Part shown: positions 1,666 to 20,657 of the stretch, one piece after another
Layout: each line of letters starts with the position of its first letter
Numbering within the stretch: position 1 is the stretch's first letter
Position numbers and translations under genes: made by a program
The notes under the pieces: generated by a model
Seen by the model: the letters and a program-made list of their open reading frames with translations, nothing else
The model's database searches: none
Told to the model about the DNA's origin: nothing
Source of the DNA: Candidatus Undinarchaeales archaeon
GTDB taxonomy: Archaea; SpSt-1190; JASMDC01
Assembly: GCA_030753015.1 (NCBI GenBank)
Contig: JASMDC010000050.1
Location: 1-20,657, forward strand
Reading direction: 5' to 3'
DNA: 20,657 nt

Positions 1666-1830
1666 GCTTTTATCAATGTACCATCCCGTTGTACGAACCT
1701 TACCCATCTAGAACAATTCGAGACGGTGTTCGATTCCCGCTTCATCAGGGGTAGTTTCACCGCCGCAGTAACGCGACGGCCAGCGCTTTCCCTTCTCACG
1801 GGCGTTTAAGCTCTCCGTGCAACTCACGGC
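1666..1830 (-). ncRNA. Predicted TnpB omega/reRNA: scaffold overlaps the tnpB 3' end, guide comes from flanking DNA
   Basis: The tnpB tail AVSCTESLNA...DEAGIEH and minus-strand ...GATGAAGCGGGAATCGAACA...GGGTAAGGTTCGTACAACGG resemble IS607-type right ends. It is established that TnpB RNAs overlap the ORF end and extend into the flank. Boundaries are approximate. Confidence 0.6.
1667..1685 (-). promoter_or_regulatory. Putative TATA-like promoter for a leaderless deacetylase transcript
   Basis: Minus strand reads GATGGTACA-TTGATAAAAG, centred about 26 nt upstream of ATG 1647. Confidence 0.45.
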
Positions 1831-2960
1831 GAGCTTTTCGAGATTGTGACTCGCGTTCAGGTCGCGGTCGATGCGAAGGCCACACTTCCCGCACATGAAC
1901 GTACGTTCAGAGAGCCTCAGCCTCCTCTTCACATGACCGCACCTTGAACACCTCTTGCTTGACGGGAAGAACCTGTCGGCGACCACGAGCCGCGACCCGC
2001 ACCACTCGGTCTTGTAATCGAGTTGCTGTCGGAACTCATTGAACCCGACATCTGACACGGCTTTGCTAAGATGCTTGTTATTCATCATCCCGGAAACGTT
2101 CAGGTCCTCGACCACCACGACCGACTTGGTTCTCGCCAGCCATGAGGTGGCCTTGTGGATTGCATCCCTGCGAATGTTGCCGATTCGGGCGTGGACCCGC
2201 TGTATTCGATGCACGGTCTTCTTACGGTTCTTGCTCCCTTTCCTCTTCCGAGCGAGCGATCTTTGCATCCTCCTGAGCTTCCGCTCGTAGCGTGAGAATG
2301 ACCTGGGATTCTTGAACACCGTCCCGTCGGACACGGTGGCCAACCGTTCGATGCCGAGGTCGACTCCCGCAGACGGTCCGCCATTTATGGGGACATCGAT
2401 CTCCTCCTCGACCAAGACGGACACGTACCACCGCCCGGCACGCTCCGACACGGTGGCCGAGAGTATATGGACGTCGGTCGGGAGGTACCCGCGCTCCTTG
2501 AGCCTAAGCCTCCCGAGCCTAGGCAGCTGGATGGCGTTCTCGAAGACCTTGATGGTTCCCGTCAGCCTGAACGAGCTAGCACCTCGCTTCCTCGACCTGG
2601 ACCTCGGGTACCTTGCCCTGCCGGTGAAGAAGTTCTTGAACGCGGTGTCGAGGTCACGCAAGGCCTCCTGCGCTGCGCACTTGGACACCTCGTACATCCA
2701 CGGATAGACCTTCACCTTGAGCCGGTTGAGCTCGCGGTGAAGCTCGATGCTGTTGGTCGACCGCTTTTCTTTCTCATACAGCTCGATCCTCCGTGCAAGA
2801 CCCCAGTTGTAGGTGAACCTCGCCGTACCAGCATGCTTCAGGCAGGTGGTGCGCTGCGTGTTATTGAGCTTCAGCTCGGTCTTGTAGCCACGATGGACGA
2901 TCATTCCTGTTCCGCCTCACGGCCTTTCCTGTTCGGTCCCGTGCAAGCAAGGCTCGGCCG
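1686..2960 (-). mobile_element. Non-autonomous IS607/IS605-family element carrying only tnpB
   Basis: Full tnpB with no intact tnpA. Right end inferred at ...CAACGG (1686). Left end not defined (somewhere in 2905-3160). Confidence 0.65.
1708..2904 (-). CDS. tnpB: RNA-guided endonuclease TnpB (398 aa)
   Basis: N-terminal YKTELKLNNTQR..HAGTARFTYNWGL; RuvC-I GVDLG; RuvC-II VVVEDL; Zn ribbon CSRC..CGKC; RuvC-III DRDLNAS. Confidence 0.96.
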   Translation of the reverse strand: MIVHRGYKTELKLNNTQRTTCLKHAGTARFTYNWGLARRIELYEKEKRSTNSIELHRELNRLKVKVYPWMYEVSKCAAQEALRDLDTAFKNFFTGRARYPRSRSRKRGASSFRLTGTIKVFENAIQLPRLGRLRLKERGYLPTDVHILSATVSERAGRWYVSVLVEEEIDVPINGGPSAGVDLGIERLATVSDGTVFKNPRSFSRYERKLRRMQRSLARKRKGSKNRKKTVHRIQRVHARIGNIRRDAIHKATSWLARTKSVVVVEDLNVSGMMNNKHLSKAVSDVGFNEFRQQLDYKTEWCGSRLVVADRFFPSSKRCSRCGHVKRRLRLSERTFMCGKCGLRIDRDLNASHNLEKLAVSCTESLNAREKGKRWPSRYCGGETTPDEAGIEHRLELF

Positions 2961-4402: not shown

Positions 4403-6688
4403 ATGCCTACAAAGAAGCTCACCAAGAAAGAGATCGCTGAGATCGAGGAGGAGCTCGTCGCCGTCGAGGAGAGGCTCGACGACATGAACGAGGTGATCAC
4501 TCAACGGGAGTCGGCCACCGATCCGTGGATGATCACATCCCTATTGCTCGCTTTCATCCTTGTCATCGGTGTAATGGGATTCAGGGGCGAAGGATTCGCC
4601 TTCCAGCCCGGCACCAGCGGTGGAGGCATCACCCTCCAGCAGGTGCAGAACCTCGCCATCGACATGCGAGCTCGTGGTCTCTCCGAGACCGAGGTGGCCG
4701 AGGGACTGGGCATCCTCGGCATCGACGTCTCGACCATCGCTTCCATCGTGGAGGCACCAAAGGCGACACCTCCGACCGCTACCGTCACTCCGACCGCTAG
4801 ACCGGAACCTACGAAGGTCGCCCCCACGCCCGCCCCCGAGGTGGATGAAGGGACGGCCGTGGTGACCATCATCGAGTTCTCCGATTTCGAGTGCCCCTTC
4901 TGCGGAAGGGCCCATCCCACGATCGAGCAGATCAAGAAGGAGTACGGGAGCAAGCTCAAGCATATCTTCAAGCACTTCCCGCTCAGCTTCCATCCATTCG
5001 CACAGAAGGCCGCCGAAGCGGCCGAGTGCGCCCGTGACCAGGGCAAGTTCTGGGAGATGTACAACACCCTCTTCGACAATTCCAAGGCGCTCGGGGAGAG
5101 CGATATCAAGGGGTACGCCGCCGAGCTGGGATTCGACATGGACGAGTTCAACGAGTGCTACGACAGCGGTATCAAGGATAAGATCGTGTTGGAGGACTTC
5201 ACGGAGGGCCAGTCCCGCGGCGTCTCCGGCACCCCCGCCTTCTTCATCCAGGGCACGACCGAGGACGGCAGCATCATAGAGGAGTCCATCCAGGGCGCGC
5301 AGCCCATCGAGGTCTTCAGGGACACCATCGACATGATGATCGGAGGTCAACGGCCCACGGACGAGGACCCTGCCATGGAGATCGTGGTCGTGAACGACAA
5401 GGAATGCGACTCGTGCGACCCGACCCAGATCCTGACCATCCTCAAGACGCAGCTCTTCCCCAAGGCGACCAGCCGGATCATCGACATCTCGTCCGACGAG
5501 GGCGCCGCCTTGGTGAAAGACCTCAAGCTCAAGGTGGTCCCGTCCTACCTCTTCCCCAAGGACGTGCTCACTGCCAGCCATAACTACATCAAGCTCCAGG
5601 ACATGCTCGAGGACAAGGGCGAGTGGCTCACCATCGTGCCCGGTGCCACCGGTGCCGGCCGGTACCTCGAACCGCCGTCGGTGGACGATGATCCGAGCAA
5701 GGGTCCTGCGGACGCGCCCGTCACCATCATCGAGTTCACGGACTTCCAGTGCCCGTTCTGCAAGCGTGGTACCGACATCGTCTATCAGATCATCGACACG
5801 TACGGTGACCAGGTACGGGTAGTGATTCGCGACTTCCCGCTCGCTGCTCTCCATCCCGATGCGCCCCTGGCCCACGAGGCGGCCGAGTGCGCCGACGAGC
5901 AGGGCAAGTTCTGGGAGATCCATGACAAGATATTCGCCAACCAGGCCGACGTCTCCATCGCCACGTTGAAGGGCTATGCCAATGACCTGGGCCTCGACAT
6001 GGACCGGTTCAACGCCTGCCTCGACGGCGGCGCCATGAAGGCCGAGATCGACGCTGACATGGCCGCCGGGAGGGAGTACGGCGTGTCCGGGACGCCCGCG
6101 TTCTTCATCAACGGCCTGATGCTGGCCGGCGCGCAACCGTTCGAGAACTTCGCCTCGATCATTGACGCCCAGCTAGAGAAGGCCGGTGCGGCCCCGGCAG
6201 CGCCCGCGGAGCCCACTGCGACACCCGCTCCAGCCGAGCCGTCAGAGGGAGAGGCCACTCCCGCTCCCGAGGCGACGCCCGAGCCCACCCCGGTGCCAAC
6301 AGGCCGGGCGGCGGACCTGGCAGCAGCGGCCTACGTCGGTAACACCGCGGCCGACAGCGCGCTTGCTGAAGCGTGCAAGAGCTGGATGTACAGCGACTGG
6401 GAGACGCTGCCCGAGACAGAGCACCCCCTGGGCGTGCTCGCCACGCGCATCGTCATGCCTGGTGACACTCGCGTGCTCACCGAGGACGAGTACCTCGCCG
6501 AGAAGGACCTCACCAAGTGCGACTGCATGGTGTTCCTCAAGAACAGGGGCGGTATCTCCGATTCCGAGGTCCGCGCGCCCTTCGCTGCCGAGACCGACTG
6601 CTCCGCATGGGGCCACGCGCGAGGGTGCGAGCTGCTCTGCTACGGTGACGGCGAGGACGAGTGCAAGGCTGCCCACGGGTGCGCCTAG
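4403..6688 (+). CDS. Membrane-anchored DsbA-family protein: two DsbA domains, a central thioredoxin-like CxxC domain and a Cys-rich C-terminus (761 aa)
   Basis: TM helix WMITSLLLAFILVIGVMGF; IIEFSDFECPFC...HFPL...AAECA..QGKFW...GVSGTP; central NDKECDSC...LKVVPSYLF; second IIEFTDFQCPFC...DFPL...GVSGTP; P/T/A linkers; 8 Cys in the last ~105 aa. Confidence 0.92.
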   Translation: MPTKKLTKKEIAEIEEELVAVEERLDDMNEVITQRESATDPWMITSLLLAFILVIGVMGFRGEGFAFQPGTSGGGITLQQVQNLAIDMRARGLSETEVAEGLGILGIDVSTIASIVEAPKATPPTATVTPTARPEPTKVAPTPAPEVDEGTAVVTIIEFSDFECPFCGRAHPTIEQIKKEYGSKLKHIFKHFPLSFHPFAQKAAEAAECARDQGKFWEMYNTLFDNSKALGESDIKGYAAELGFDMDEFNECYDSGIKDKIVLEDFTEGQSRGVSGTPAFFIQGTTEDGSIIEESIQGAQPIEVFRDTIDMMIGGQRPTDEDPAMEIVVVNDKECDSCDPTQILTILKTQLFPKATSRIIDISSDEGAALVKDLKLKVVPSYLFPKDVLTASHNYIKLQDMLEDKGEWLTIVPGATGAGRYLEPPSVDDDPSKGPADAPVTIIEFTDFQCPFCKRGTDIVYQIIDTYGDQVRVVIRDFPLAALHPDAPLAHEAAECADEQGKFWEIHDKIFANQADVSIATLKGYANDLGLDMDRFNACLDGGAMKAEIDADMAAGREYGVSGTPAFFINGLMLAGAQPFENFASIIDAQLEKAGAAPAAPAEPTATPAPAEPSEGEATPAPEATPEPTPVPTGRAADLAAAAYVGNTAADSALAEACKSWMYSDWETLPETEHPLGVLATRIVMPGDTRVLTEDEYLAEKDLTKCDCMVFLKNRGGISDSEVRAPFAAETDCSAWGHARGCELLCYGDGEDECKAAHGCA

Positions 6689-10051: not shown

Positions 10052-10102
10052 CTACGAACCCCTAGTCTTCAACTAAGAGGGTAGACCGGAAACGTGATTG
10101 TC

Positions 10103-10609
10103 ATGGCCGATCAAGCTGAATACGAGCTCATCCCATTAACTCCCATCCGCAGGATGGAAAAGGAGATCGCGGACCTTAAGAAGAACAAGGAAGGCGGCTC
10201 CACAGCGTTCCTCGTCAACGAGATCGTGGACATCCTCAAGATGAACCAGAAGATCGTCGATGACATGGTCCGCCTCCACGGTGATCTTGTGAGCAAGCTC
10301 TCACGCACCACCGACCGCATCGACCGGCTAGTGACCTCCATGGACAAGCTCGTCGAGATCCTGGGCGAAGCCACCGAGGCCGAACTGGCCGGTGAGAGCG
10401 GCGGCTACCGTGGCGGTGGCGGCGGCGGTGGTGGCGGCGGCGTAGCCGATGAGAAGATGGACAAGGTCATCGAGCAGAACGCGGCCCTCATCAACAGCCT
10501 CAAGGTCATCTCGGGTGAACTGGGCAAGCTCGGTGAGGTCGAGAAGGGACTCCAGAAGCTAGAGAACCTGGAGAAGGAATCACAAAGGGCCGGTCGACGA
10601 GGGAGGTAG
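10103..10609 (+). CDS. Coiled-coil protein with a poly-Gly linker, first gene of the pilus locus
   Basis: YELIPLTPIRRMEKEI N-terminus, heptad-like helices, Gly9 tract. ATG 10103 follows GTGAT; alternative GTG at 10094. Confidence 0.85.
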   Translation: MADQAEYELIPLTPIRRMEKEIADLKKNKEGGSTAFLVNEIVDILKMNQKIVDDMVRLHGDLVSKLSRTTDRIDRLVTSMDKLVEILGEATEAELAGESGGYRGGGGGGGGGGVADEKMDKVIEQNAALINSLKVISGELGKLGEVEKGLQKLENLEKESQRAGRRGR

Positions 10610-10614
10610 GTTCC

Positions 10615-11706
10615 ATGACACGGTGGACGCGGGGTCAAGTCAACATCATGTCGGCAGTGCTCATCACGGGCATCCTGCTGGCCGCCGTGGCAGGTACCTA
10701 TATTTGGGCACAGCCCATCATGCAGAAAGCGACAGACCAGCGTCGCATCGAGTACGCCAAGGAGATGCTCTCGTCGATCAATGACGGCGTGGAGAACGCC
10801 GCCATGCAGAAGCAGCAGAAGGTCGTACCGGTCGAGTACGACCGCGGCGTCCTAAAGCTCATAACCGAGGCGGGTACCGGCGAGTACGTGCTCCAGTACG
10901 AGATCGAGACCAACATCCCCATGCTCGCGTCAACTGCATGGGTCCCACTTACGGGGACCGAACTGCCGTTGCAGGAGAACGCGAAGTTCGTGACCGCCTG
11001 GTGCTACAACATGGGGCATCAGGGCGATGATCAGAAGAAGTCCTCGCGTGACGCACAGTGCAAGAACATGGACTCCTGGGAGTTCTGGAAGGCCTTCGAC
11101 CTTACCGGGAACGGCGATTACGTCCCCTACTTCACTAGCTGCAAGGAGCTTGGAGGCCCCAGCTACTTCGGTGTCTCGGACAACATCATCACCATCGAGT
11201 CGAACGAGTACCGCGCGCTCGTGTGCGACACGGGCCGACAGTCCTATTCCTGCTTGGTGCCGTGGAAGAACGGCGAACTCGAAGTGAACGAGAACGGCTG
11301 CCAGGGCGCTTGGAAGACCAAGAACGACCGCGTCACGATCGGGGACAGCAAGTGGCAGGTGGCCGAACTGAATACCGGCGACATGGTCGCCATCGGCCTG
11401 CGTCTCCTCTCAGGGTACGTGGACAAGATGGGTATGAAGGGCAAGAGCTCGCCCTGTGTCATCATCGCCCGCTCGCTGAGCCCCTCGCAGAACCGGCGCG
11501 CGATCATCCGTATCAAGTGCCGGCCAATCTACGACTCACAGGACAACATCGCCTACGACATCAAGCTCAAGCCCGGACAGATCACGCTCGCACCGGCGGG
11601 ATCGCATACGATCACGATCCGTTACCGGTTCGACAAAACCCTGCCACCAAAGCCAGGGGAGCAATGGACGACCAAGGAGATTACTGTCGAGGTGTCCCTG
11701 GACTAG
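10615..11706 (+). CDS. Large type IV prepilin-like protein with a class III signal peptide (363 aa)
   Basis: TRG|QVNIMSAVLITGILLAAVAGTYIWAQP: basic leader, G|Q cleavage site and hydrophobic helix; RBS GGAGGT; 8 Cys in the globular part. Confidence 0.8.
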   Translation: MTRWTRGQVNIMSAVLITGILLAAVAGTYIWAQPIMQKATDQRRIEYAKEMLSSINDGVENAAMQKQQKVVPVEYDRGVLKLITEAGTGEYVLQYEIETNIPMLASTAWVPLTGTELPLQENAKFVTAWCYNMGHQGDDQKKSSRDAQCKNMDSWEFWKAFDLTGNGDYVPYFTSCKELGGPSYFGVSDNIITIESNEYRALVCDTGRQSYSCLVPWKNGELEVNENGCQGAWKTKNDRVTIGDSKWQVAELNTGDMVAIGLRLLSGYVDKMGMKGKSSPCVIIARSLSPSQNRRAIIRIKCRPIYDSQDNIAYDIKLKPGQITLAPAGSHTITIRYRFDKTLPPKPGEQWTTKEITVEVSLD

Positions 11707-11715
11707 GTCCCAGCG

Positions 11716-12339
11716 ATGGCGAACCGCCGACGCTCCACTTGCCGACCACAAGGGCCGCGCTCCCGAATACTCACGCACGAGCGTGGACAGCAGCTGATCA
11801 TCGAGGCAGTCCTGACCTTCGGCGCCGGCGTCATGGTGCTTGGGATGGTGGCGACTGTGTTCTCATTCACGAACGAGAAGGTCGTCACGATCCTTATCGA
11901 GCGGTACATCGAAGAGATCGCGGACTACACGGCCTCGGCGATCCTCATCGTGTACGAATCGGGCAAACACTTGAAATCGCCGACACCGGATCCCATCGCT
12001 GTCTCGGAGCTCCGTCTCGACATCCCCGAGATGCTGGCGAACGAGCCCTACCTCATGCACGTGTCCCACGACCGGCGAAAGAAGGCAATCGTGGTGTCCG
12101 TCAAGATCCCGGGTAAGGCGCGCAAGGACGTGCTCGTCACCGGTCTTGAGGACGTTAACGTCTCCTGCTGCAATTGTAAGAGCTGGAAGGAGGAATCTTC
12201 GACGAGCGAGTTCTATGGTGAGATATTCCCCATTGCTTTCCCCAGCGGAAGACAGATGGTAGTGCGTCTCTTCAAGCCGTATCGCATGATCGGGTCCGAT
12301 AAAGTATATAACGCATTATGTATTGAAGAGTTACAGTAG
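11716..12339 (+). CDS. Type IV prepilin-like (minor pilin) protein (207 aa)
   Basis: ERG|QQLIIEAVLTFGAGVMVLGMVATVFSF after an Arg-rich leader; LDIPEMLANEPY segment; CCNC cluster. Confidence 0.78.
   Translation: MANRRRSTCRPQGPRSRILTHERGQQLIIEAVLTFGAGVMVLGMVATVFSFTNEKVVTILIERYIEEIADYTASAILIVYESGKHLKSPTPDPIAVSELRLDIPEMLANEPYLMHVSHDRRKKAIVVSVKIPGKARKDVLVTGLEDVNVSCCNCKSWKEESSTSEFYGEIFPIAFPSGRQMVVRLFKPYRMIGSDKVYNALCIEELQ
12297..12311 (+). promoter_or_regulatory. Possible internal promoter upstream of the ATPase
   Basis: CGATAAAG-TATATAA in an AT-rich patch at the 3' end of the pilin gene. Confidence 0.35.
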
Positions 12340-12377
12340 CCACGCGGTTCTCGCTGGCTACGAGGGCTGATGCGGCC

Positions 12378-14378
12378 GTGAAAAAGAAGAAGCGCATCGT
12401 TGATGGCATCGTCAAGGGTAAGCTCTCTCTCATTAGACGGAAGACCCACCGCGACAGGAAGCGCATCATCCGTGCATCGATCAATCCCGTGAACGTCGAT
12501 GTCGCACCGGCACCGGTCATCGTGACCGGCGGCGGAGGTGGCGGGGTATCGAGCCCCGCTGTCGAGGCAGCCATCCTCAAGATCCTCCAGCGCATGGACT
12601 CCATGCCCGCACCCGCACCGAGGAGCAGCGCAAGCGATGACGGGCTCATCGAGGAGTTCGGCTTCCAGCAGGAAGCGCTACTCGAAGAGATGCGCGCCAT
12701 GCGCCAGCAATCGGGTGGTGGAGGTGGCGGGAGCGAGGTGAAGATCGCGTCCAAGAAGAGATCAGGAACCCATGGCAAGAATCAGGAGGGCATCAAGCTC
12801 CTCACCCTGGAAGAGATGGCCGAGCTCGGGCTGGAGGACCGATTCGAAGAGATCCAGCGGGCGAAAATCGAGGAGTCCCAGGAGCTCAGGAACGTCAACC
12901 AGACGTACCCGCTCATGCAGAGCCCGCTGAACACGGAGCGCACCCTGACGTGGGCCAACATCCGCTACAACCAGCAGACCAAGTCACTGGTCTATACGGT
13001 CATCGAACCGCAGATGTCCGAAGAGGAGGAACAGGTCTTCAAGGAGATTCAAGTGAAGCTCCAGGAGCGCATGGACGTCAACTTCGAGGGCGGGGGCGCG
13101 TTCCAGCAGGAGTTCCTCGTCAACAAGGTGTACGAGTTCCTAAACTACTTCGGCTACGTCCTCTCCCCAGACCAGCTGGAGAAGGTCATCTATTTCGTGG
13201 TCCGCGACTTCATCGGGCTCAACAACCTCGAGCCGCTGCTCCATGATCCCGCTATTGAGGACATCTCGTGCGACGGCTTCAGCATCCCGGTCTTCATTGC
13301 TCACAACAATCCCCTCTTCGGAGAGATCGCCACGACAGTGGTGTTCGAGGACAAGGAACTACTGGACAACTTCGTCATGAAGCTCTCTCAGCGGTGTGGT
13401 AGGGCCATCTCAGTGGCCGACCCCCTCCTCGACGGAGCACTGCCTGACGGGAGCCGTGTCCAGGCGACCTTCGGTACCGACATATCCAAGCGCGGTTCCA
13501 ACTTCACCATCCGTAAGTTCTCCAAGGAGCCGGTCACGCCTATCAAGATGGTGCGGTCCGGCACTGTCACTCCCGAGGTGCTTGCCTATCTATGGCTCGC
13601 GGTCGAGGCTGGCAAGTCGGTCCTCGTGTCCGGAGCGACCGCCACAGGGAAGACGACCATGCTCAACGCCATCTCCCTCTTCATCAAGCCAGAGCAGAAG
13701 ATCGTCTCTATCGAGGACACGGCGGAGCTGCGTCTGCCCCACCCCAACTGGCTGCCCCAGGTGGCACGGGCCGCTGCTGGCTCGCATGGTGTGGGTGGCG
13801 TATCGATGTTCGACCTGCTCAAGGCCGCACTGCGCCAGCGCCCTGATTACCTCCTAGTGGGGGAGGTGCGTGGCGACGAGGCAGCCATCATGTTCCAGGC
13901 CATGTCAACAGGCCACGCGGGGATGAGCACCATCCACGCAGAGAACATGGAGAAGCTCATCAATCGTCTCACCACAAAGCCGATCAGCCTTCCTGCGGTG
14001 CTCCTCGAGAGCCTTGACATCGTCTTGTTCCTCATCCGTGCACGGCTGGGCAAGCATTACGTGCGCCGCGTCAACCAGCTCGTGGAGATCGCGGGAGTGG
14101 ACGGGGACACCAAGGAGGTCCAGACCCGGTTCGTGTTCGAGTGGGATCCCACCGAAGACACCATCGCTGCGCTCGAGGAGAGCGTGGTCATGGAGAAGGT
14201 CAGGGTCAACCGGGGTATCTCCAAAGAGGAGATCCTCGCCGAGCTCTACAGGCGTGCGAAGCTCCTGGAATGGCTCAACGACAACAACATCGTGGACTTC
14301 GAGCGAGTATCGAAGTTCATCGAGACCTACTACGTGGACCCCGAGAGGATCAGGCAGTGGACTCGCGGTGAGGTCTAA
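12378..14378 (+). CDS. Type II/IV secretion (pilus assembly) ATPase, FlaI/TadA/VirB11 family, with a long N-terminal extension (666 aa)
   Basis: LLHDPAIEDISCDG, LPDGSRVQAT, FTIRKF; Walker A GATATGKTT; IEDTAEL; LRQRPD with Walker B LLVGEVRG; His box TGHAGMSTIHA; start uncertain. Confidence 0.95.
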   Translation: MKKKKRIVDGIVKGKLSLIRRKTHRDRKRIIRASINPVNVDVAPAPVIVTGGGGGGVSSPAVEAAILKILQRMDSMPAPAPRSSASDDGLIEEFGFQQEALLEEMRAMRQQSGGGGGGSEVKIASKKRSGTHGKNQEGIKLLTLEEMAELGLEDRFEEIQRAKIEESQELRNVNQTYPLMQSPLNTERTLTWANIRYNQQTKSLVYTVIEPQMSEEEEQVFKEIQVKLQERMDVNFEGGGAFQQEFLVNKVYEFLNYFGYVLSPDQLEKVIYFVVRDFIGLNNLEPLLHDPAIEDISCDGFSIPVFIAHNNPLFGEIATTVVFEDKELLDNFVMKLSQRCGRAISVADPLLDGALPDGSRVQATFGTDISKRGSNFTIRKFSKEPVTPIKMVRSGTVTPEVLAYLWLAVEAGKSVLVSGATATGKTTMLNAISLFIKPEQKIVSIEDTAELRLPHPNWLPQVARAAAGSHGVGGVSMFDLLKAALRQRPDYLLVGEVRGDEAAIMFQAMSTGHAGMSTIHAENMEKLINRLTTKPISLPAVLLESLDIVLFLIRARLGKHYVRRVNQLVEIAGVDGDTKEVQTRFVFEWDPTEDTIAALEESVVMEKVRVNRGISKEEILAELYRRAKLLEWLNDNNIVDFERVSKFIETYYVDPERIRQWTRGEV

Positions 14379-15337
14379 TGAGCTTTGCAGAAGAATACCT
14401 TCGCTTCTCTTACTCGTTGTTCGGCAGCCTCGTCGAGTCGTACGGTTCGTCGCTTGCCGACATCCGCAACGACCTGCGTAAGGCGAGCATCCGCCTGACG
14501 GCCGAGGAGTACGTGTCCGCTGCCATCATGAGCTCTCTGATCCTGCCCATCCTCCTTCTGGTACCCACTGGCGTGCTGATGATCCTCCTTGATCCCTTCG
14601 CACCCAACACCATTATCATCGTCGCGTTCGGCGCGGTGTTCGGCTGGACGTTCATGTTCGTGGCGGTGCTGACGATGTTCTATATCTACCCTGCGATCAT
14701 CGTCTCGGGGAAGAAGAAGTCCATCGACAACATCCTGCCGTTCGCAACGACGTACCTGGCCACCATGGCCGGATCGGGGATGCCGCCGCAGAACATCTTC
14801 AAGATCATGTCGAAGTTCGACCAGTACGGGGACGTGAGCCAGGAGGCAAAGCTCATCACCCGTGACATCGAGATCTTCGGTATGGACGTGCCCACCGCCC
14901 TCGAGCGGGCCTCGGGACGCCAGGCATCCGAACAGTTCAAGGACCTGCTGTGGGACATCAAGGACACCATCACCACGGGCGGTGACCTCAAGATCCTCCT
15001 CCACGAGAAGTCACGAGAGTACATGAACGTATACCGGCGATCACTGGACTCCTACGTGGAGCAGCTGTCGATGTTGGTGGAGATGTACATCACTGTCGTC
15101 ATCGTAGGATCTGTGTTCTTCGTGGTCATGTCGGCGGTCATGACGGTCATGGGCGGGGGGGACATCATGCCGCTACTACAGAAGGGCATGTTGATAATGC
15201 TGCCGCTGGCGGCTGACGGATTCATCGTCATGGTCATGACCATGTCGCCCGTGGCAAAGGCAGACAGCACATACGAGATACTCATTCTGGGTGCGCTCAC
15301 CTTCGTCGTCATCATCTACGTGGTGGTGTCCACATGA
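14378..15337 (+). CDS. Type II secretion F-domain platform protein (TadB/TadC/FlaJ-like) 1 (319 aa)
   Basis: TAATG overlap with the ATPase; LRKASI, IDNILPFA..YLATMAGSG, YGDVS.E, FGMD..TAL, TGGDL; several TM helices. Confidence 0.92.
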   Translation: MSFAEEYLRFSYSLFGSLVESYGSSLADIRNDLRKASIRLTAEEYVSAAIMSSLILPILLLVPTGVLMILLDPFAPNTIIIVAFGAVFGWTFMFVAVLTMFYIYPAIIVSGKKKSIDNILPFATTYLATMAGSGMPPQNIFKIMSKFDQYGDVSQEAKLITRDIEIFGMDVPTALERASGRQASEQFKDLLWDIKDTITTGGDLKILLHEKSREYMNVYRRSLDSYVEQLSMLVEMYITVVIVGSVFFVVMSAVMTVMGGGDIMPLLQKGMLIMLPLAADGFIVMVMTMSPVAKADSTYEILILGALTFVVIIYVVVST

Positions 15338-15349
15338 CTACTGCCGGAA

Positions 15350-15364
15350 CGATGGTTTTTTATT
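15350..15364 (+). promoter_or_regulatory. CGATGGTTTTTTATT element, copy 1 (BRE/TATA-like promoter or oligo-T terminator)
   Basis: Identical 15-mer also at 16686-16700; each copy lies just after a platform-gene stop. Confidence 0.45.
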
Positions 15365-15425
15365 CTCGCGACGCGTATAATCTACATAGGGACACTTTTA
15401 TGCGACCACGTCAGGAGGATTGCCT

Positions 15426-16670
15426 GTGAGCCTACGCCAGAAGCTTCTTGAGCTGCGCGAGGACAAGAAGATGCTGACTGTCATCTTCGGCGCCTTCATC
15501 GGACTCAGCATCATCATGTACGGCGTGTTCATGAAGTTCACGGACCCCGACATGGGGTCCGAGTCGTTCGCATCGATCATCATCGTAGGGGTGATCTCCA
15601 TGGGCGGTCCCTATGCCTTCGTCCAGTACCAGGAGTTCTCCCGTATCCAGAAGATGGAGGAGGCCCTCCCCAACTTCCTGCGATACATCGCAGAAGCGCG
15701 TCGGTCCGGTATGACCATCCCGCATGGTCTGTCCAACGCCGCCAAGACCGATTACGGACCGCTCTCGCCCGAGATCCGGATGATGGCGTCCCAGCTCTCC
15801 TGGGGTATCCCGTTCCCCCATGTCATCGAGATGTTCATCGACCGGAACGACAAGTCGTCGTTCATCCAGCAGTCGATGGGTATCATCATCGAGGCATACC
15901 GCTCGGGAGGAGATGTGGCCGAGACCATGGAATCGGTGGCGCAGGACGCACGACTCGTCAAGGACCTGGAGGCCGAGCAGAAGGCCAAGATGTCGGCACA
16001 GGTCATGATCATGTACGTCATCCATATCATCTTCCTCGTCATCATCTACGCTCTAACCACCATCCTCAAGCCCCTGCTCGTGATGCAGAAGTCCTCGGGT
16101 CTGTCGTCCATGTTCGGTTCATCGGGCGGTAAGTCGCTCACCACCGGCAGCTACCGCACCCTGTTCATGAACATGTGCTACATCGAGGGGATCTACAATG
16201 GCCTCATCGCCGGTGAGATCGGTGACGGCTCGGTGATCGCCGGGTTCAAGCACTCGATGATCATGCTCACGATGTCGATCCTGATGTTCGCCGTGGTCAT
16301 CAAGCCTCAGCCCATGTCCATGACACCACTGGTCGTCTCGTCGTACTTCTACCCCGACGAGCCCATCGTGATGGAGGGCTCGGTGTCCAAGCCCGACGGC
16401 TCGCCGGTGAAACACGCATCCGTTGGCGCGGTCCTCCTGTGCATCACGTCCGAGATGGGGGAGAGCGGGTGTCGTAAAGGTGATATCGTGTGCGAGGTGG
16501 ATTCCAGGTGCGGTATGTGCAAGTGCGTGCGTACCGACAACTGGGGCGTGTACAAGCTGTCGCTCAAGTCACCTGTCGAGGCCGGCGATTACCAGATAAA
16601 GGTGGTCGTCGTCGACGACAAGGTCACCAAGACACGTATCACCGAGTCCTCGGACTTCACCGTCGGTTAG
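15426..16670 (+). CDS. Type II secretion F-domain platform protein 2 with a C-terminal Cys-rich Ig-like extension
   Basis: GGAGG RBS 7 nt before GTG 15426; MEEALPNFLR...RSGMT, DYGPLSPEI, LSWG.PF, AYRSGG.V, GLIAGEIGDG..AGFKH; then a ~120-aa beta-rich tail with 6 Cys. Confidence 0.92.
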   Translation: MSLRQKLLELREDKKMLTVIFGAFIGLSIIMYGVFMKFTDPDMGSESFASIIIVGVISMGGPYAFVQYQEFSRIQKMEEALPNFLRYIAEARRSGMTIPHGLSNAAKTDYGPLSPEIRMMASQLSWGIPFPHVIEMFIDRNDKSSFIQQSMGIIIEAYRSGGDVAETMESVAQDARLVKDLEAEQKAKMSAQVMIMYVIHIIFLVIIYALTTILKPLLVMQKSSGLSSMFGSSGGKSLTTGSYRTLFMNMCYIEGIYNGLIAGEIGDGSVIAGFKHSMIMLTMSILMFAVVIKPQPMSMTPLVVSSYFYPDEPIVMEGSVSKPDGSPVKHASVGAVLLCITSEMGESGCRKGDIVCEVDSRCGMCKCVRTDNWGVYKLSLKSPVEAGDYQIKVVVVDDKVTKTRITESSDFTVG

Positions 16671-17810: not shown

Positions 17811-18314
17811 TCAAACGATCGTGATGCTCCTCACGCCCTCGATCCGGCGCAGCCGCTTGACCAGCCCGTCCGGGAGCTCCTTGTCGAGCACGAGGAGGAG
17901 GGAGGGCTCCTCGTTAAATGAAGGATCCTCGGCGATGGCCTGATGGATGCCCACGTCGAACTCGGCGATCGCTGTCGAGATGCGTGAGAGCAGACCCCGC
18001 TTCGCTGCGTCGTCCGGGGCGATGCGAAGGGCCACCAGCCCAAGGTGTGAAGCAACGTCCCGCAGCGCCGGCTGGGGGCGCAGGTTCGTGAAGACAGCGC
18101 TGAGGATGGTATCGTCGAGGATGGTGCGGCAGGTCTGGTCCACCACTCTTCGATCGACACCGATGGTACGGGCCAGTCCGGCATGGGATACCGGGACGCC
18201 GCTCGTGTGGACCCGGCCCTCATCGTTCACGGCCAGTCCTCGGGCGTAGAGAGCACGCGCCACTCTGAGCTGCGCTCGTCGTCCGCCGAACCGGTCACTT
18301 ACTGCCGACCACAT
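17811..18314 (-). CDS. trpY: TrpY-like ACT-domain transcriptional regulator (COG2150, 167 aa)
   Basis: MW..V...F, GL.V...GRV, LAR.IGVDRRVV..T..TIL.D..L..VF, C-terminal ACT (GLLSRISTAIA..DVGIHQAIAEDP...P.L...IEGVRSITI) match archaeal TrpY as recalled; divergent from a trpB2 fragment with TRP boxes between. Confidence 0.85.
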   Translation of the reverse strand: MWSAVSDRFGGRRAQLRVARALYARGLAVNDEGRVHTSGVPVSHAGLARTIGVDRRVVDQTCRTILDDTILSAVFTNLRPQPALRDVASHLGLVALRIAPDDAAKRGLLSRISTAIAEFDVGIHQAIAEDPSFNEEPSLLLVLDKELPDGLVKRLRRIEGVRSITIV

Positions 18315-18328
18315 AGAATGAAAATGTG

Positions 18329-18344
18329 CGAAAAAGTTTATATT
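18329..18344. promoter_or_regulatory. Overlapping divergent TATA region for trpY and the former trpB2
   Basis: Plus strand CGAAAAAG-TTTATAT; minus strand AATATAAAC centred about 26 nt upstream of trpY ATG 18314. Confidence 0.65.
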
Positions 18345-18360
18345 TGTTCACATATGTACA
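18345..18360. promoter_or_regulatory. Tandem TRP boxes (TrpY operator)
   Basis: TGTTCA-cata-TGTACA, matching the TGTACA TRP-box pair with 4-bp spacing described for Methanothermobacter TrpY. Confidence 0.7.
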
Positions 18361-18380
18361 TTTTACAGCGAGTAATAAGA

Positions 18381-18575
18381 GTCTTCTTCGCAGGGGACAT
18401 CTTCGCCAAGAGCGAGGGTATCATCATCGCCCCGGAGAACGCTCACGCGGTGGCCGCTGCCATCCGCGAGGCCAAGGAAGCGAACGAGGAACGGATCATC
18501 GTGTTCAATCTCTCGGGTCACGGACTGCTGGACCGGGGCTGGTACGAGGCCTACCTGAACGGCAAACGGGAGTAA
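18381..18575 (+). pseudogene. trpB2: C-terminal fragment (~64 aa) of tryptophan synthase beta chain TrpB2
   Basis: IFAKSEGIIIAPENAHAVAAAIREA...IIVFNLSGHGLLD..WYEAYLNGK matches the TrpB2 C-terminus; no start codon after the promoter and no PLP-lysine region. Confidence 0.85.
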
Positions 18576-18650: not shown

Positions 18651-20657
18651 CTAGAGCTTGGAGCCGCCGGTCTCGATCACGATGTCCACGATCTCGGATG
18701 ACAACCCCGTGATCATCTCCTCCTGCTCGCCATAGACCGTGATCGCGAGCTCGTAGGTATTGACATCATAGGAGAACTTCGTGCCGATGAAGTTCTTGGA
18801 GTATGCGCCGCGTGCCGAGAAGGCGACCAGATAGGTGTTCCCGTCGGGCGAGTAGGTCTCGCCCACCTTGTGCATCGCAGAGCACTTGCCCTGGAGCTTG
18901 TCGAACACCTCCTGGGGATCGACGGTGAGCTGCATCCGCGTCTTATTGCTCGGCAGGGCCTTGACCTTAGTCTTGAACCCATCGAGGTCCATCGGGACCT
19001 TCTCAAGGAAGGGACAGACCGAGCCCACAGTAACGGGCTGCACCTCGACCATCTTACGGTTGTTCTTGATGTCGTGGTAGATGACCGTGCCGGTGATGTT
19101 GCCGGAGACGCACCGGGTGGGCACGAGCTTGAAGATGGCGCTCTGGAACTCACCACGCTTGAGGGCACCGAGATCGACGCTGTTGCTCCCGCCACCTTCG
19201 ATGCGGAACGCCTTGGGTATGTCGAGGTGCACGGAGACGTCCACCAGTGGGAACGTGGAATTGTTCACTACCTTCACACCGATCTTGATGATGTTGCCCT
19301 CACGCGTGACCCCGCGCTTGACGCTGACCTTCTCTTCTCCGATGGTCTTCCTCTTGAGAACGTTGAGGTAGTAACCAAGCGCACTGATACCGCCGATGAT
19401 GGCGAATAGGAATTCCCAGTACGCGAGGAGGAAACCGACCGGGTTCTCCTGCAGGAGCTGGAGGGCCGGTTTCTCCACAGGCACCTCCTCTTCCTCTTCG
19501 GTGCAGTAGAAGCGATCGGTGTCGCAGTATTCGTCCACCATGCAATGCGCGTCCGATGTACAGCAGACGAATCCCTGGAGGCAACATACCTGGTTGCAGT
19601 TTGCCGAATCGCACTCGGCGTTCGCTGTACAAGCGATCCCAACGTCCTTCTTGACCGTCGCTAGTGCATTCTGGGCCTCGGACTGGGCCTCGAGCACAAG
19701 CTTGTAAGCCTTGGCCACGTCGCCTGCTTCCACGGCACGGGCGGCCTCCGTCAGGACGGTATCGATGGAGAGCGTGTCCAGTCCTTTCTCCTTTGCGCTC
19801 GCGATGAGTGTACGTGCCTTCTCGAGCTCAATAGATACATCAGACTCCGTGATCTGCTCCGTTGGTTTCTCAGTGGGTTCCGGCGACGCACCGATCTCGA
19901 CACAGAAAAAACGCTCCTTGTCGCACTGTTCGGTCTCAAGGCAGTCCGCGTTGGAGACACAGCAGGTCCTACCCTTGAGGCAGCACACCTGCCAGCAGTT
20001 GGCGGAGTGGCAATCGGAGTTCCTGTTGCAGACCTTGCCGTTCTCGAGTAGAACGACGGGCGTTGCCGATGGTGCCGAGGTCGGGACGATCGTCTGCACG
20101 GGCGTGGCAGAAGGTGAGGGTGGCTCCGTCGGTGCTTGGGACGGTACCGGTGTTGCCGTGGGAGTCTCGGTCGGGGAAGGCTCCGGGACCGGCGTGGCAT
20201 CAGGTGCTGCGCAGTAGAAGCGATCGCTGCACTCCTTTTCAGGCGGGCAGTCAGTGTCGGAGATACAACAGGTCTGACCGGCGACACAGCAAACACCGCT
20301 GCCGCAGTTTCCGCCAAGGCAGTCCTCGTCATCGGTGCAGGGGCCACCATTGGCACGCTTGGGGCGTTCGGTGGGTGCCTGAGTAGGGGCTTGCGTGGGC
20401 GCTTGGGTAGGACCTTGAGTGGGCGTTTGGGTCGGTGCTTGAGTGGGCGTTTGGGTAGGACCTTGAGTAGGTGCCTGAGTGGGCGCTTGCGTGGGTGCCG
20501 CGGTGGCAGTCTGCGCCACCTCTCCACATATCTGGACATTGGTCAAAGTGCCGTAAATAACTCCGAACACAGGCCATCCATCGGAATAACCATAGAGGAC
20601 AGTGACATCGTTCAAGCCGGACACGTCCACCTCGAGCTCGCAGTCCTTGGAAGCCTG
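18651..20657 (-). CDS. 5'-truncated single-pass surface protein: PTQx repeats, three 10-Cys modules, a helical spacer, a TM helix and a cytoplasmic beta-sandwich plus alpha/beta domain
   Basis: Frame is open to the window edge (QASKDCELEV precedes the listed GTG); TM FLLAYWEFLFAIIGGISALGYYL followed by KRK (positive-inside). Confidence 0.9.
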   Translation of the reverse strand, partial: QASKDCELEVDVSGLNDVTVLYGYSDGWPVFGVIYGTLTNVQICGEVAQTATAAPTQAPTQAPTQGPTQTPTQAPTQTPTQGPTQAPTQAPTQAPTERPKRANGGPCTDDEDCLGGNCGSGVCCVAGQTCCISDTDCPPEKECSDRFYCAAPDATPVPEPSPTETPTATPVPSQAPTEPPSPSATPVQTIVPTSAPSATPVVLLENGKVCNRNSDCHSANCWQVCCLKGRTCCVSNADCLETEQCDKERFFCVEIGASPEPTEKPTEQITESDVSIELEKARTLIASAKEKGLDTLSIDTVLTEAARAVEAGDVAKAYKLVLEAQSEAQNALATVKKDVGIACTANAECDSANCNQVCCLQGFVCCTSDAHCMVDEYCDTDRFYCTEEEEEVPVEKPALQLLQENPVGFLLAYWEFLFAIIGGISALGYYLNVLKRKTIGEEKVSVKRGVTREGNIIKIGVKVVNNSTFPLVDVSVHLDIPKAFRIEGGGSNSVDLGALKRGEFQSAIFKLVPTRCVSGNITGTVIYHDIKNNRKMVEVQPVTVGSVCPFLEKVPMDLDGFKTKVKALPSNKTRMQLTVDPQEVFDKLQGKCSAMHKVGETYSPDGNTYLVAFSARGAYSKNFIGTKFSYDVNTYELAITVYGEQEEMITGLSSEIVDIVIETGGSKL
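19503..20351 (-). repeat. Three copies of a ~47-aa 10-Cys module (20211-20351, 19902-20042, 19503-19643)
   Basis: Consensus G-x2-C-x5-C-x3-N-C-x3/4-CC-x2-G-x2-CC-x-S-x3-C-x3-E-x-C-x2/3-RF[YF]C in all three copies. Confidence 0.9.
20364..20495 (-). repeat. Degenerate 12-bp coding tandem repeat, 11 units (PTQ[A/G/T] x10, then PTER)
   Basis: Read directly in protein and DNA; synonymous variation between units. Confidence 0.92.

Follow-up and report, generated by a model that had tools for sequence, protein, structure and literature searches.

Organization of the locus and the receptor-like gene

The window, i.e. the whole stretch of 20,657 nucleotides (nt) analysed here, lies on contig JASMDC010000050.1 of the Candidatus Undinarchaeales assembly GCA_030753015.1. 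It ends within a gene for a receptor-like surface protein whose tail resembles, at the level of the predicted fold, the appendage ("ear") domains of the eukaryotic coat adaptors AP2 and COPI. The features of this gene and of its surroundings are compiled in Table 1. From N- to C-terminus, the visible protein begins with the end of an unidentified domain, which is followed by a Pro/Thr linker, three ten-Cys modules, a transmembrane (TM) helix and the tail; a helical stretch lies between modules 2 and 3, and an acidic stretch connects module 3 with the membrane. The ectodomain of 407 amino acids (aa) contains 32 Cys and 20% Pro+Thr, the three 43-aa ten-Cys modules included, and the 229-aa tail holds three Cys. 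A preliminary description, made from the DNA letters alone, had recognized a single-pass surface protein with a Cys-rich exterior and a KRK flank, and each of the sequence features that it listed was found in the place given for it.

Table 1. Position of the receptor-like gene, its elements and the other features of the window (coordinates refer to the window)
Feature	Position	Strand	Remarks
Receptor-like open reading frame (ORF)	18651..20657	-	668 aa in window (P0001); frame open at window end
Pro/Thr-rich (APTQ)n linker	20367..20510	-	residues ~49-97; read from translation
Ten-Cys ectodomain module 1	20211..20339	-	residues 107-149; regular expression on translation; no Pfam match
Ten-Cys ectodomain module 2	19902..20030	-	residues 210-252; regular expression on translation
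Ten-Cys ectodomain module 3	19503..19631	-	residues 343-385, just outside membrane; regular expression on translation
Single TM helix	19356..19436	-	residues 408-434; sole hydrophobic segment, Kyte-Doolittle 19-residue maximum 1.85
Juxtamembrane KRKTI	19341..19355	-	opens conserved K-R-K-T-[IL]-G-E-E motif
Beta-sandwich (Ig-like, E-set) subdomain	19017..19328	-	tail residues 5-108
C-P-F junction	19008..19016	-	tail residues 109-111; C109 kept in at least 90% of 51 members
Platform (TBP-like alpha/beta) subdomain	18657..19007	-	tail residues 112-228
IS605 OrfB/TnpB-type transposase-associated gene	1708-2904	-	OrfB_IS605 1e-26, Cas12f1-like TNB 6.6e-21
761-aa double DsbA-like thioredoxin protein	4403-6688	+	Thioredoxin_4 9.8e-54, DSBA 8.8e-45
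Archaeal type IV pilus locus	10094-16670	+	small upstream genes, one with weak DUF7289 (pilin-like) match
PilB3-like T2SSE ATPase	12378-14378	+	in type IV pilus locus
Two T2SSF membrane proteins	14378-15337, 15420-16670	+	second with Cys-rich C-terminal extension
Short ORF between receptor gene and neighbour	18183-18575	+	no Pfam match at E<=1e-4

The reading frame meets a run of Ns just past the window end (about positions 20658-20667 of contig C63, which has 23,617 bases), so that the assembly lacks the N-terminus of the receptor and any signal peptide. The receptor gene is spanned with at least 99% identity by DNA contigs of three other studies, one of which reaches 286 nt beyond the window end. 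The window DNA was found in marine or seawater metagenome runs of 12 studies. A single metatranscriptome contig of 195 nt covers positions 19158-19352 with eight differences, which is insufficient to show transcription.

The ten-Cys module follows the pattern C-x6-C-x4-C-x3-5-CC-x6-CC-x6-C-x6-C-x6-C over 43 residues (window 19503-20339, minus strand) and has no matching Pfam family. It is present in 17 of 157 family proteins (P0002, P0003, P0009, P0010, P0013 and others), in some of which it adjoins the TM helix on the outer side.

Fold of the tail

The tail was modelled with AlphaFold2 without templates from 51 aligned family members (alignment A2), resulting in a mean pLDDT of 92.9 and a pTM of 0.62. 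In the model, eight strands form a sandwich across tail residues 5-108; the CPFLE junction at residues 109-113 precedes a helix formed by residues 119-126 (DLDGFKTKV), and the second lobe (residues 112-228) has the order beta-alpha-beta-alpha-beta4-alpha, its last helix comprising residues 207-223 (EEMITGLSSEIVDIVIE). The beta pattern, the junction and the alpha/beta region with its closing helix had been read by eye in the preliminary description, and the model agrees with that reading.

A Foldseek search of the tail model against the PDB returned 58 matches at E<=1e-3. Ranks 1 to 14 are all appendages of COPI (9qpq_H, 5a1u_E), AP2 alpha, AP2 beta2 or gamma-COP (E 3.4e-10 to 1.7e-7; 230-263 alignment columns; TMq 0.39-0.60), and the next match, TRAP-beta (E about 1e-6), covers the sandwich lobe only. 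Strands 5-108 superpose on the sandwich lobes of 1w80, 1e42 and 9qpq_H, and both the sandwich and the platform of an adaptin/COPI appendage are present in the model. The suspected likeness to these appendages is hence supported at fold level. The ESM Atlas feature search, which uses no structure, retrieved an archaeal hypothetical cluster as its best match (0.93), followed by eukaryotic Alpha_adaptin_C, Alpha_adaptinC2, B2-adapt-app_C and coatomer appendage clusters (0.85-0.92). Since neither Pfam nor NCBIfam nor the PDB sequences gave a match, the likeness of the modelled tail to eukaryotic ears is one of fold only.

A constant tail with exchanged ectodomains

A search with the tail retrieved 304 cluster representatives at E<=1e-3; of these, 76 remain at a cutoff of E<=1e-10 and 21 at E<=1e-30. 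With clusters defined at 50% identity, the family thus comprises at least 304 clusters, and the number of representatives, including those at the strictest level, indicates that the domain is more than a product of chance. The tails of the 20 closest proteins are 46-70% identical, and their N-terminal Pfam families differ or are absent (FG-GAP, PQQ and WD40 propellers, NPCBM_assoc, FGE-sulfatase). In the 78 pairs formed by 13 close members, the median identity amounts to 69% for the tail (range 55-96) and to 9% for the ectodomain (range 2-47). Ectodomain families seen across the tail family are WD40, PQQ, FG-GAP, beta-helix, FGE-sulfatase and Laminin_G_3. The comparison documents that the tail is a constant module combined with many swapped ectodomains.

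Of the 150 representatives listed, 147 were examined; the three excluded were P0132, with a length of 86 aa, P0145, and P0023, a fragment with the same sequence as the query. A TM-like segment lies at most 70 residues upstream of the domain in 67 of them; the match extends through the platform in 87 and covers mainly the sandwich in 44. Pfam families were tallied for representatives of up to 1300 aa, with 25 families listed per tally. The 64 proteins of the TM class contain WD40 (6), ACSF4-type propellers (6), PQQ_2 (5) and beta-helix/NosD (3), and the 74 other proteins Zn_Ribbon_1 (8), TPR (5), DUF2341 (4), WD40 (3) and FGE-sulfatase (3).

Membrane topology

The 20-residue flank on the N-terminal side of the TM helix contains one K/R and six D/E, and the C-terminal flank, KRKTIGEEKVSVKRGVTREG, seven K/R and three D/E. 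According to the positive-inside rule these charges, together with the distribution of Cys (32 versus 3), fit an orientation with the N-terminus outside and the C-terminus inside. Beyond the charge rule, three observations on relatives place the domain in the cytoplasm. First, the metagenomic protein P0142 is a direct fusion of a complete appendage-like domain with a full FtsZ GTPase (Tubulin 1.5e-40, FtsZ_C, TIGR00065 1.9e-77) and lacks a TM helix. Second, the order is reversed in five proteins, which start with the domain and continue through a K/R-rich stretch and a TM helix to an outer region, the latter being an FGE-sulfatase in P0137 and P0155. Third, a CxxC...CxxC (Zn-ribbon) motif is located downstream of the domain in 73 of the 147 representatives. 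The tail accordingly resides on the cytoplasmic side, as the preliminary description had assumed. An extracellular tail was rejected on the basis of the flank charges and of the fusion and reversed-order proteins.

Copies in the genome and in related genomes

The genome of the window (G000; 3.85 Mb, 98.9% complete, 5% contamination) contains 11 places that match the tail. In each of the eight receptor-type paralogues compared, the TM segment is followed by a K-R-K-T-[IL]-G-E-E-like motif and then by the domain, with a constant tether of five residues between the membrane helix and the domain. The copy on contig C60 is apparently a soluble stand-alone domain, and the short one on C84 contains two hydrophobic segments. 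The frame of the C35 copy (G000:C35:30305-30634) stops directly after the sandwich lobe with TGA; its counterpart in G006, the sole other species of the genus, likewise stops there with TAG (G006:C23:3660-3980). This type of copy may have a conserved sandwich-only tail or may be decaying.

The tail has ten matching places in G006 and none in the remaining 15 genomes of the phylum, which measure 0.6-1.2 Mb. A tree of 34 tails pairs five of seven G000 copies with a G006 orthologue at starred support. These orthologous pairs show that the expansion predates the split of the two species and that the copies have been maintained since then. The copy of the window has no G006 partner and is nested among metagenomic sequences (support 93/97). 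The genomes of the genus measure 3.6-3.8 Mb versus 0.6-1.2 Mb in the other 15 species of the phylum; the genus is either a large-genome lineage within a small-genome phylum or doubtfully placed.

Gene neighbourhoods

A survey of neighbourhoods, as the preliminary description had advised, detected no conserved neighbour of the receptor-type copies in G000. Within three to five genes on either side of the ten other copies (79 ORFs, copies included) the genes are unrelated and include glutamine synthetase, radical-SAM enzymes, FeoB, RFC and helicases. Vps4, ESCRT-III and SPFH genes are absent from these neighbourhoods and from the window. The whole genome gave no match to Snf7, Vps4_C, MIT or PspA_IM30; in the control search with the same four families, 1, 4, 3 and 9 of 14 genomes matched, respectively. 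G000 has six genes of the tubulin/FtsZ family; its only SPFH homologue is a weak one (E 5e-8), located some 14 kb from the closest paralogue.

A different setting was found for P0036, a soluble family member with a Zn-ribbon that matches the tail at E 4.6e-24. Its AlphaFold2 model (pLDDT 80.6) shows a long coiled coil followed by sandwich, platform and Zn-ribbon, and its top 12 Foldseek matches are AP2/COPI appendages (E 4.4e-10 to 1e-6). In both metagenomic contigs that are long enough, the P0036-type gene is located two genes downstream of a gene for an SPFH protein with a Zn-ribbon, in the order PQQ-propeller/Big_3_5, SPFH/Band_7+Zn-ribbon, helical 275-aa protein and P0036-type gene. These contigs have a length of only 5 kb, so that a Vps4 gene could not have been seen. 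The two genes flanking this neighbourhood were considered as family members and rejected (hhalign probability 0.1).

The protein encoded between the SPFH+Zn-ribbon and the appendage+Zn-ribbon gene (P0160; L037:2134-2961, plus strand) is all-helical and has 275 aa and a hydrophobic C-terminus. Neither Pfam nor NCBIfam nor the PDB sequences gave a match for it, and G000 contains no homologue; it could be an ESCRT-III/PspA-like component.

None of the genes of the window is an evident partner of the receptor. Apart from those listed in Table 1, they comprise an HDAC-like gene, an EamA half-transporter and a small protein with a sub-threshold helix-turn-helix (HTH) match. Judged by its sequence, the double-thioredoxin protein is likely an extracytoplasmic disulfide oxidoreductase; its gene lies in a genome with surface proteins rich in Cys modules. 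The short ORF next to the receptor gene may be a gene remnant, and we take its C-terminal half to resemble the end of a TrpB-like PLP enzyme. Beyond the window, a 570-aa ORF on the minus strand (contig C63, 21526-23235) appears transposase-like by eye.

Proposed role and alternative explanations

The best explanation of these findings as a whole is probably a type-I receptor with an ear-like tail that serves as a membrane-proximal docking hub. A disulfide-rich, Pro/Thr-linked ectodomain would face outward on a single-pass protein, and the C-terminal 229 residues, five after the membrane, would fold into a two-lobed cytoplasmic domain of Ig-like sandwich and TBP-like platform. In evolution this tail has been combined with a wide variety of ligand-binding ectodomains; soluble relatives carry it together with coiled coils, TPR, WD40 or Zn-ribbons and, in one case, with FtsZ. 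Held against the inner face of the membrane, the tail may act as a protein-docking hub and could link receptors of different specialisation to a cytoplasmic partner that they have in common. Cytoskeletal or membrane-organising partners are suggested by the FtsZ fusion and by the SPFH/ESCRT contexts of relatives, and an FtsZ/CetZ-family or SPFH-type protein is a candidate. In the organism of the window the docking would work without an ESCRT machine.

A number of results weigh against this explanation, most of them on the side of the sequence. Pfam at E<=0.1 gave no family for the window protein or its tail, and NCBIfam no match for the window protein; four of six other proteins scanned with NCBIfam were likewise without a match, the remaining two being P0036, at chance level only, and P0142, recognized as ftsZ below the cutoff. 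In the PDB sequences, phmmer found nothing relevant for the tail (4wlq_A alone, E 0.39), and the family profile retrieved Zn-ribbon matches only (E>=0.05). The 51 aligned members were scanned against Pfam at E<=1, and among the 25 families listed of the 155 found, weak matches to E-set Ig families predominate in the sandwich: DUF11 in 23 members, NPCBM_assoc in 18, CARDB in 7, Alpha_adaptinC2 in 6 and Transglut_C in 3. The sandwich of the relatives is thus matched more often by prokaryotic E-set families than by Alpha_adaptinC2, whose matches (best E 0.0096) do not reach the curated threshold; the matches to DUF11 are weak as well (best E 2.3e-4), and platform families do not occur among the 25 families listed. 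The structural comparison has its own limits, because the whole-domain root-mean-square deviation to solved ears is 4.9-8.5 A and, at a pTM of 0.62, the inter-lobe geometry is uncertain. The recognition value of the ESM Atlas search (2058) falls below the guide value (2300), and its matches are therefore supporting evidence only. The tail starts five residues from the TM helix of a protein that is otherwise ectodomain, whereas eukaryotic ears are linked by a long hinge to a HEAT-repeat trunk. With regard to partners, no recurring gene accompanies the ten G000 copies and no partner was identified in this genome; Tubulin was found in P0142 only among 26 proteins scanned singly, and is not among the 25 families listed per tally.

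In a first alternative, which we consider unlikely though not remote, a prokaryotic CARDB/DUF11-type Ig domain would stand beside a common TBP-like or helix-grip domain, so that the likeness to ears would be convergent or generic, with neither ancestry nor action in common, and the tail would serve a purpose of another kind, for instance to anchor proteins of the envelope or to keep them at a distance. At the curated thresholds of Pfam, the window protein belongs to none of the families Alpha_adaptinC2, Alpha_adaptin_C, B2-adapt-app_C and Coatomer platform, and its tail also has no match to the CARDB, DUF11 or TRAP-beta E-set families. TRAP-beta, CARDB, DUF11 and NPCBM_assoc correspond to the first lobe only, lack a platform and are mostly extracytoplasmic. 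In view of sequence matches that are weak and fall on E-set families, with no platform family among the 25 listed, a common ancestry with eukaryotic ears is no more than plausible.

In a second alternative, which appears improbable, the chief function of the tail would be self-association: it would gather the receptors into membrane-proximal arrays instead of offering a docking site to a separate partner. The constant five-residue tether that keeps the domain at the membrane in the eight paralogues, the single tail type common to about ten paralogues and the stand-alone soluble copy on C60 would all be in agreement with such arrays; eukaryotic appendages, however, are described as monomeric hubs (10.1101/2024.02.06.579148; PMC3597702). 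A signalling receptor, in which an outside ligand alters the conformation or the partners of the tail and the tail (plus the Zn-ribbon in relatives) is the output domain, would suit the variable sensor-like ectodomain with its constant inner domain and the Zn-ribbons of the 73 representatives, but it is very improbable given that no recurring kinase, HTH or nucleotide-cyclase gene lies beside any of the ten paralogues and that the window protein itself lacks a Zn-ribbon.

The docking-hub explanation can be extended to a more far-reaching scenario, which is speculative and on present evidence rather doubtful. The receptors would constitute an ESCRT-independent prokaryotic cargo-receptor system, whose many interchangeable ectodomains capture ligands outside the cell and whose ear-like hub couples them to membrane-shaping proteins of the FtsZ/CetZ family or the SPFH type, and the ear would have begun as the tail of archaeal surface receptors at a time well before Asgard archaea and eukaryotes. 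Eukaryotic vesicle coats have their interaction hubs in the appendage domains, whose origin bears on the rise of the endomembrane system. The present analysis adds a large domain family that is absent from Pfam and NCBIfam. The family is not confined to ESCRT loci: it also occurs as the constant tail of shuffled receptors, with about ten copies in a genome without detectable ESCRT, and in fusion with FtsZ. Its members make it possible to study, on defined proteins, the binding of an ear-like hub in cells that lack coats.

Comparison with known systems

The kind of protein described here is already published. Makarova et al. 2024 (10.1101/2024.02.06.579148) reported Meth_adaptin ESCRT loci, for example in Methanosalsum zhilinae, and assigned appendage domains to the last archaeal common ancestor. 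As far as their description goes, the loci contain, besides the gene for an SPFH protein with a Zn-ribbon, genes for two proteins in which the IG-like lobe of the appendage is combined with the TBP lobe; one of the two has a Zn-ribbon and an extra N-terminal domain, the other a TM linker to a GOLD domain. Judged by the fold and the gene context of P0036, the tail family probably includes the published Meth_adaptin-type proteins, of which WP_013898571.1 and WP_013898578.1 are examples. An Ig + TBP appendage-like region in non-Asgard archaea is common to the two groups; the window protein shares the TM linker to an outer domain, relatives share the Zn-ribbon, and an SPFH+Zn-ribbon gene is nearby in the case of P0036. 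A coat-adaptor-like cytoplasmic fold joined to Cys-rich outer modules, the central proposal of the preliminary description, is supported structurally and has a non-Asgard precedent in Meth_adaptin. Unlike the Meth_adaptin genes as described, the window gene and its ten paralogues lie outside ESCRT/SPFH loci with many copies per genome, and their ectodomains are Cys-rich modules and propellers instead of GOLD. The window protein thus represents a receptor-type branch outside Meth_adaptin-like ESCRT loci; the receptor-type, multi-copy and ESCRT-free setting and the range of fusions are the new details.

The ears of AP2 alpha/beta2 and COPI beta/gamma (1w80, 1e42, 9qpq chain H, 1pzd/1r4x) consist of the same two lobes, comprise about 230 residues, are cytoplasmic and represent the best full-length structural matches of the tail; they have no detectable sequence similarity to the window protein, and the inter-lobe angle appears to differ. 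Eukaryotic appendages possess conserved aromatic binding sites for peptide motifs on platform and sandwich. The platform belongs to the TBP-domain superfamily according to Brindefalk et al. 2013 (PMC3597702), and adaptin C-terminal Pfam domains are recorded for Asgard archaea by Eme et al. 2023 (PMC10307638). The GAE and platform domains of the BBSome (6vbu, 6xt9) are weaker matches than AP/COPI and are located within large propeller-containing subunits. A functional analogy, and only that, exists with the p24/GOLD cargo receptors, which are likewise described as type-I proteins that meet cargo or ligand outside and engage coat machinery inside. The tail of p24 is a short coat-binding peptide, whereas the receptor of the window itself bears the ear-like domain.

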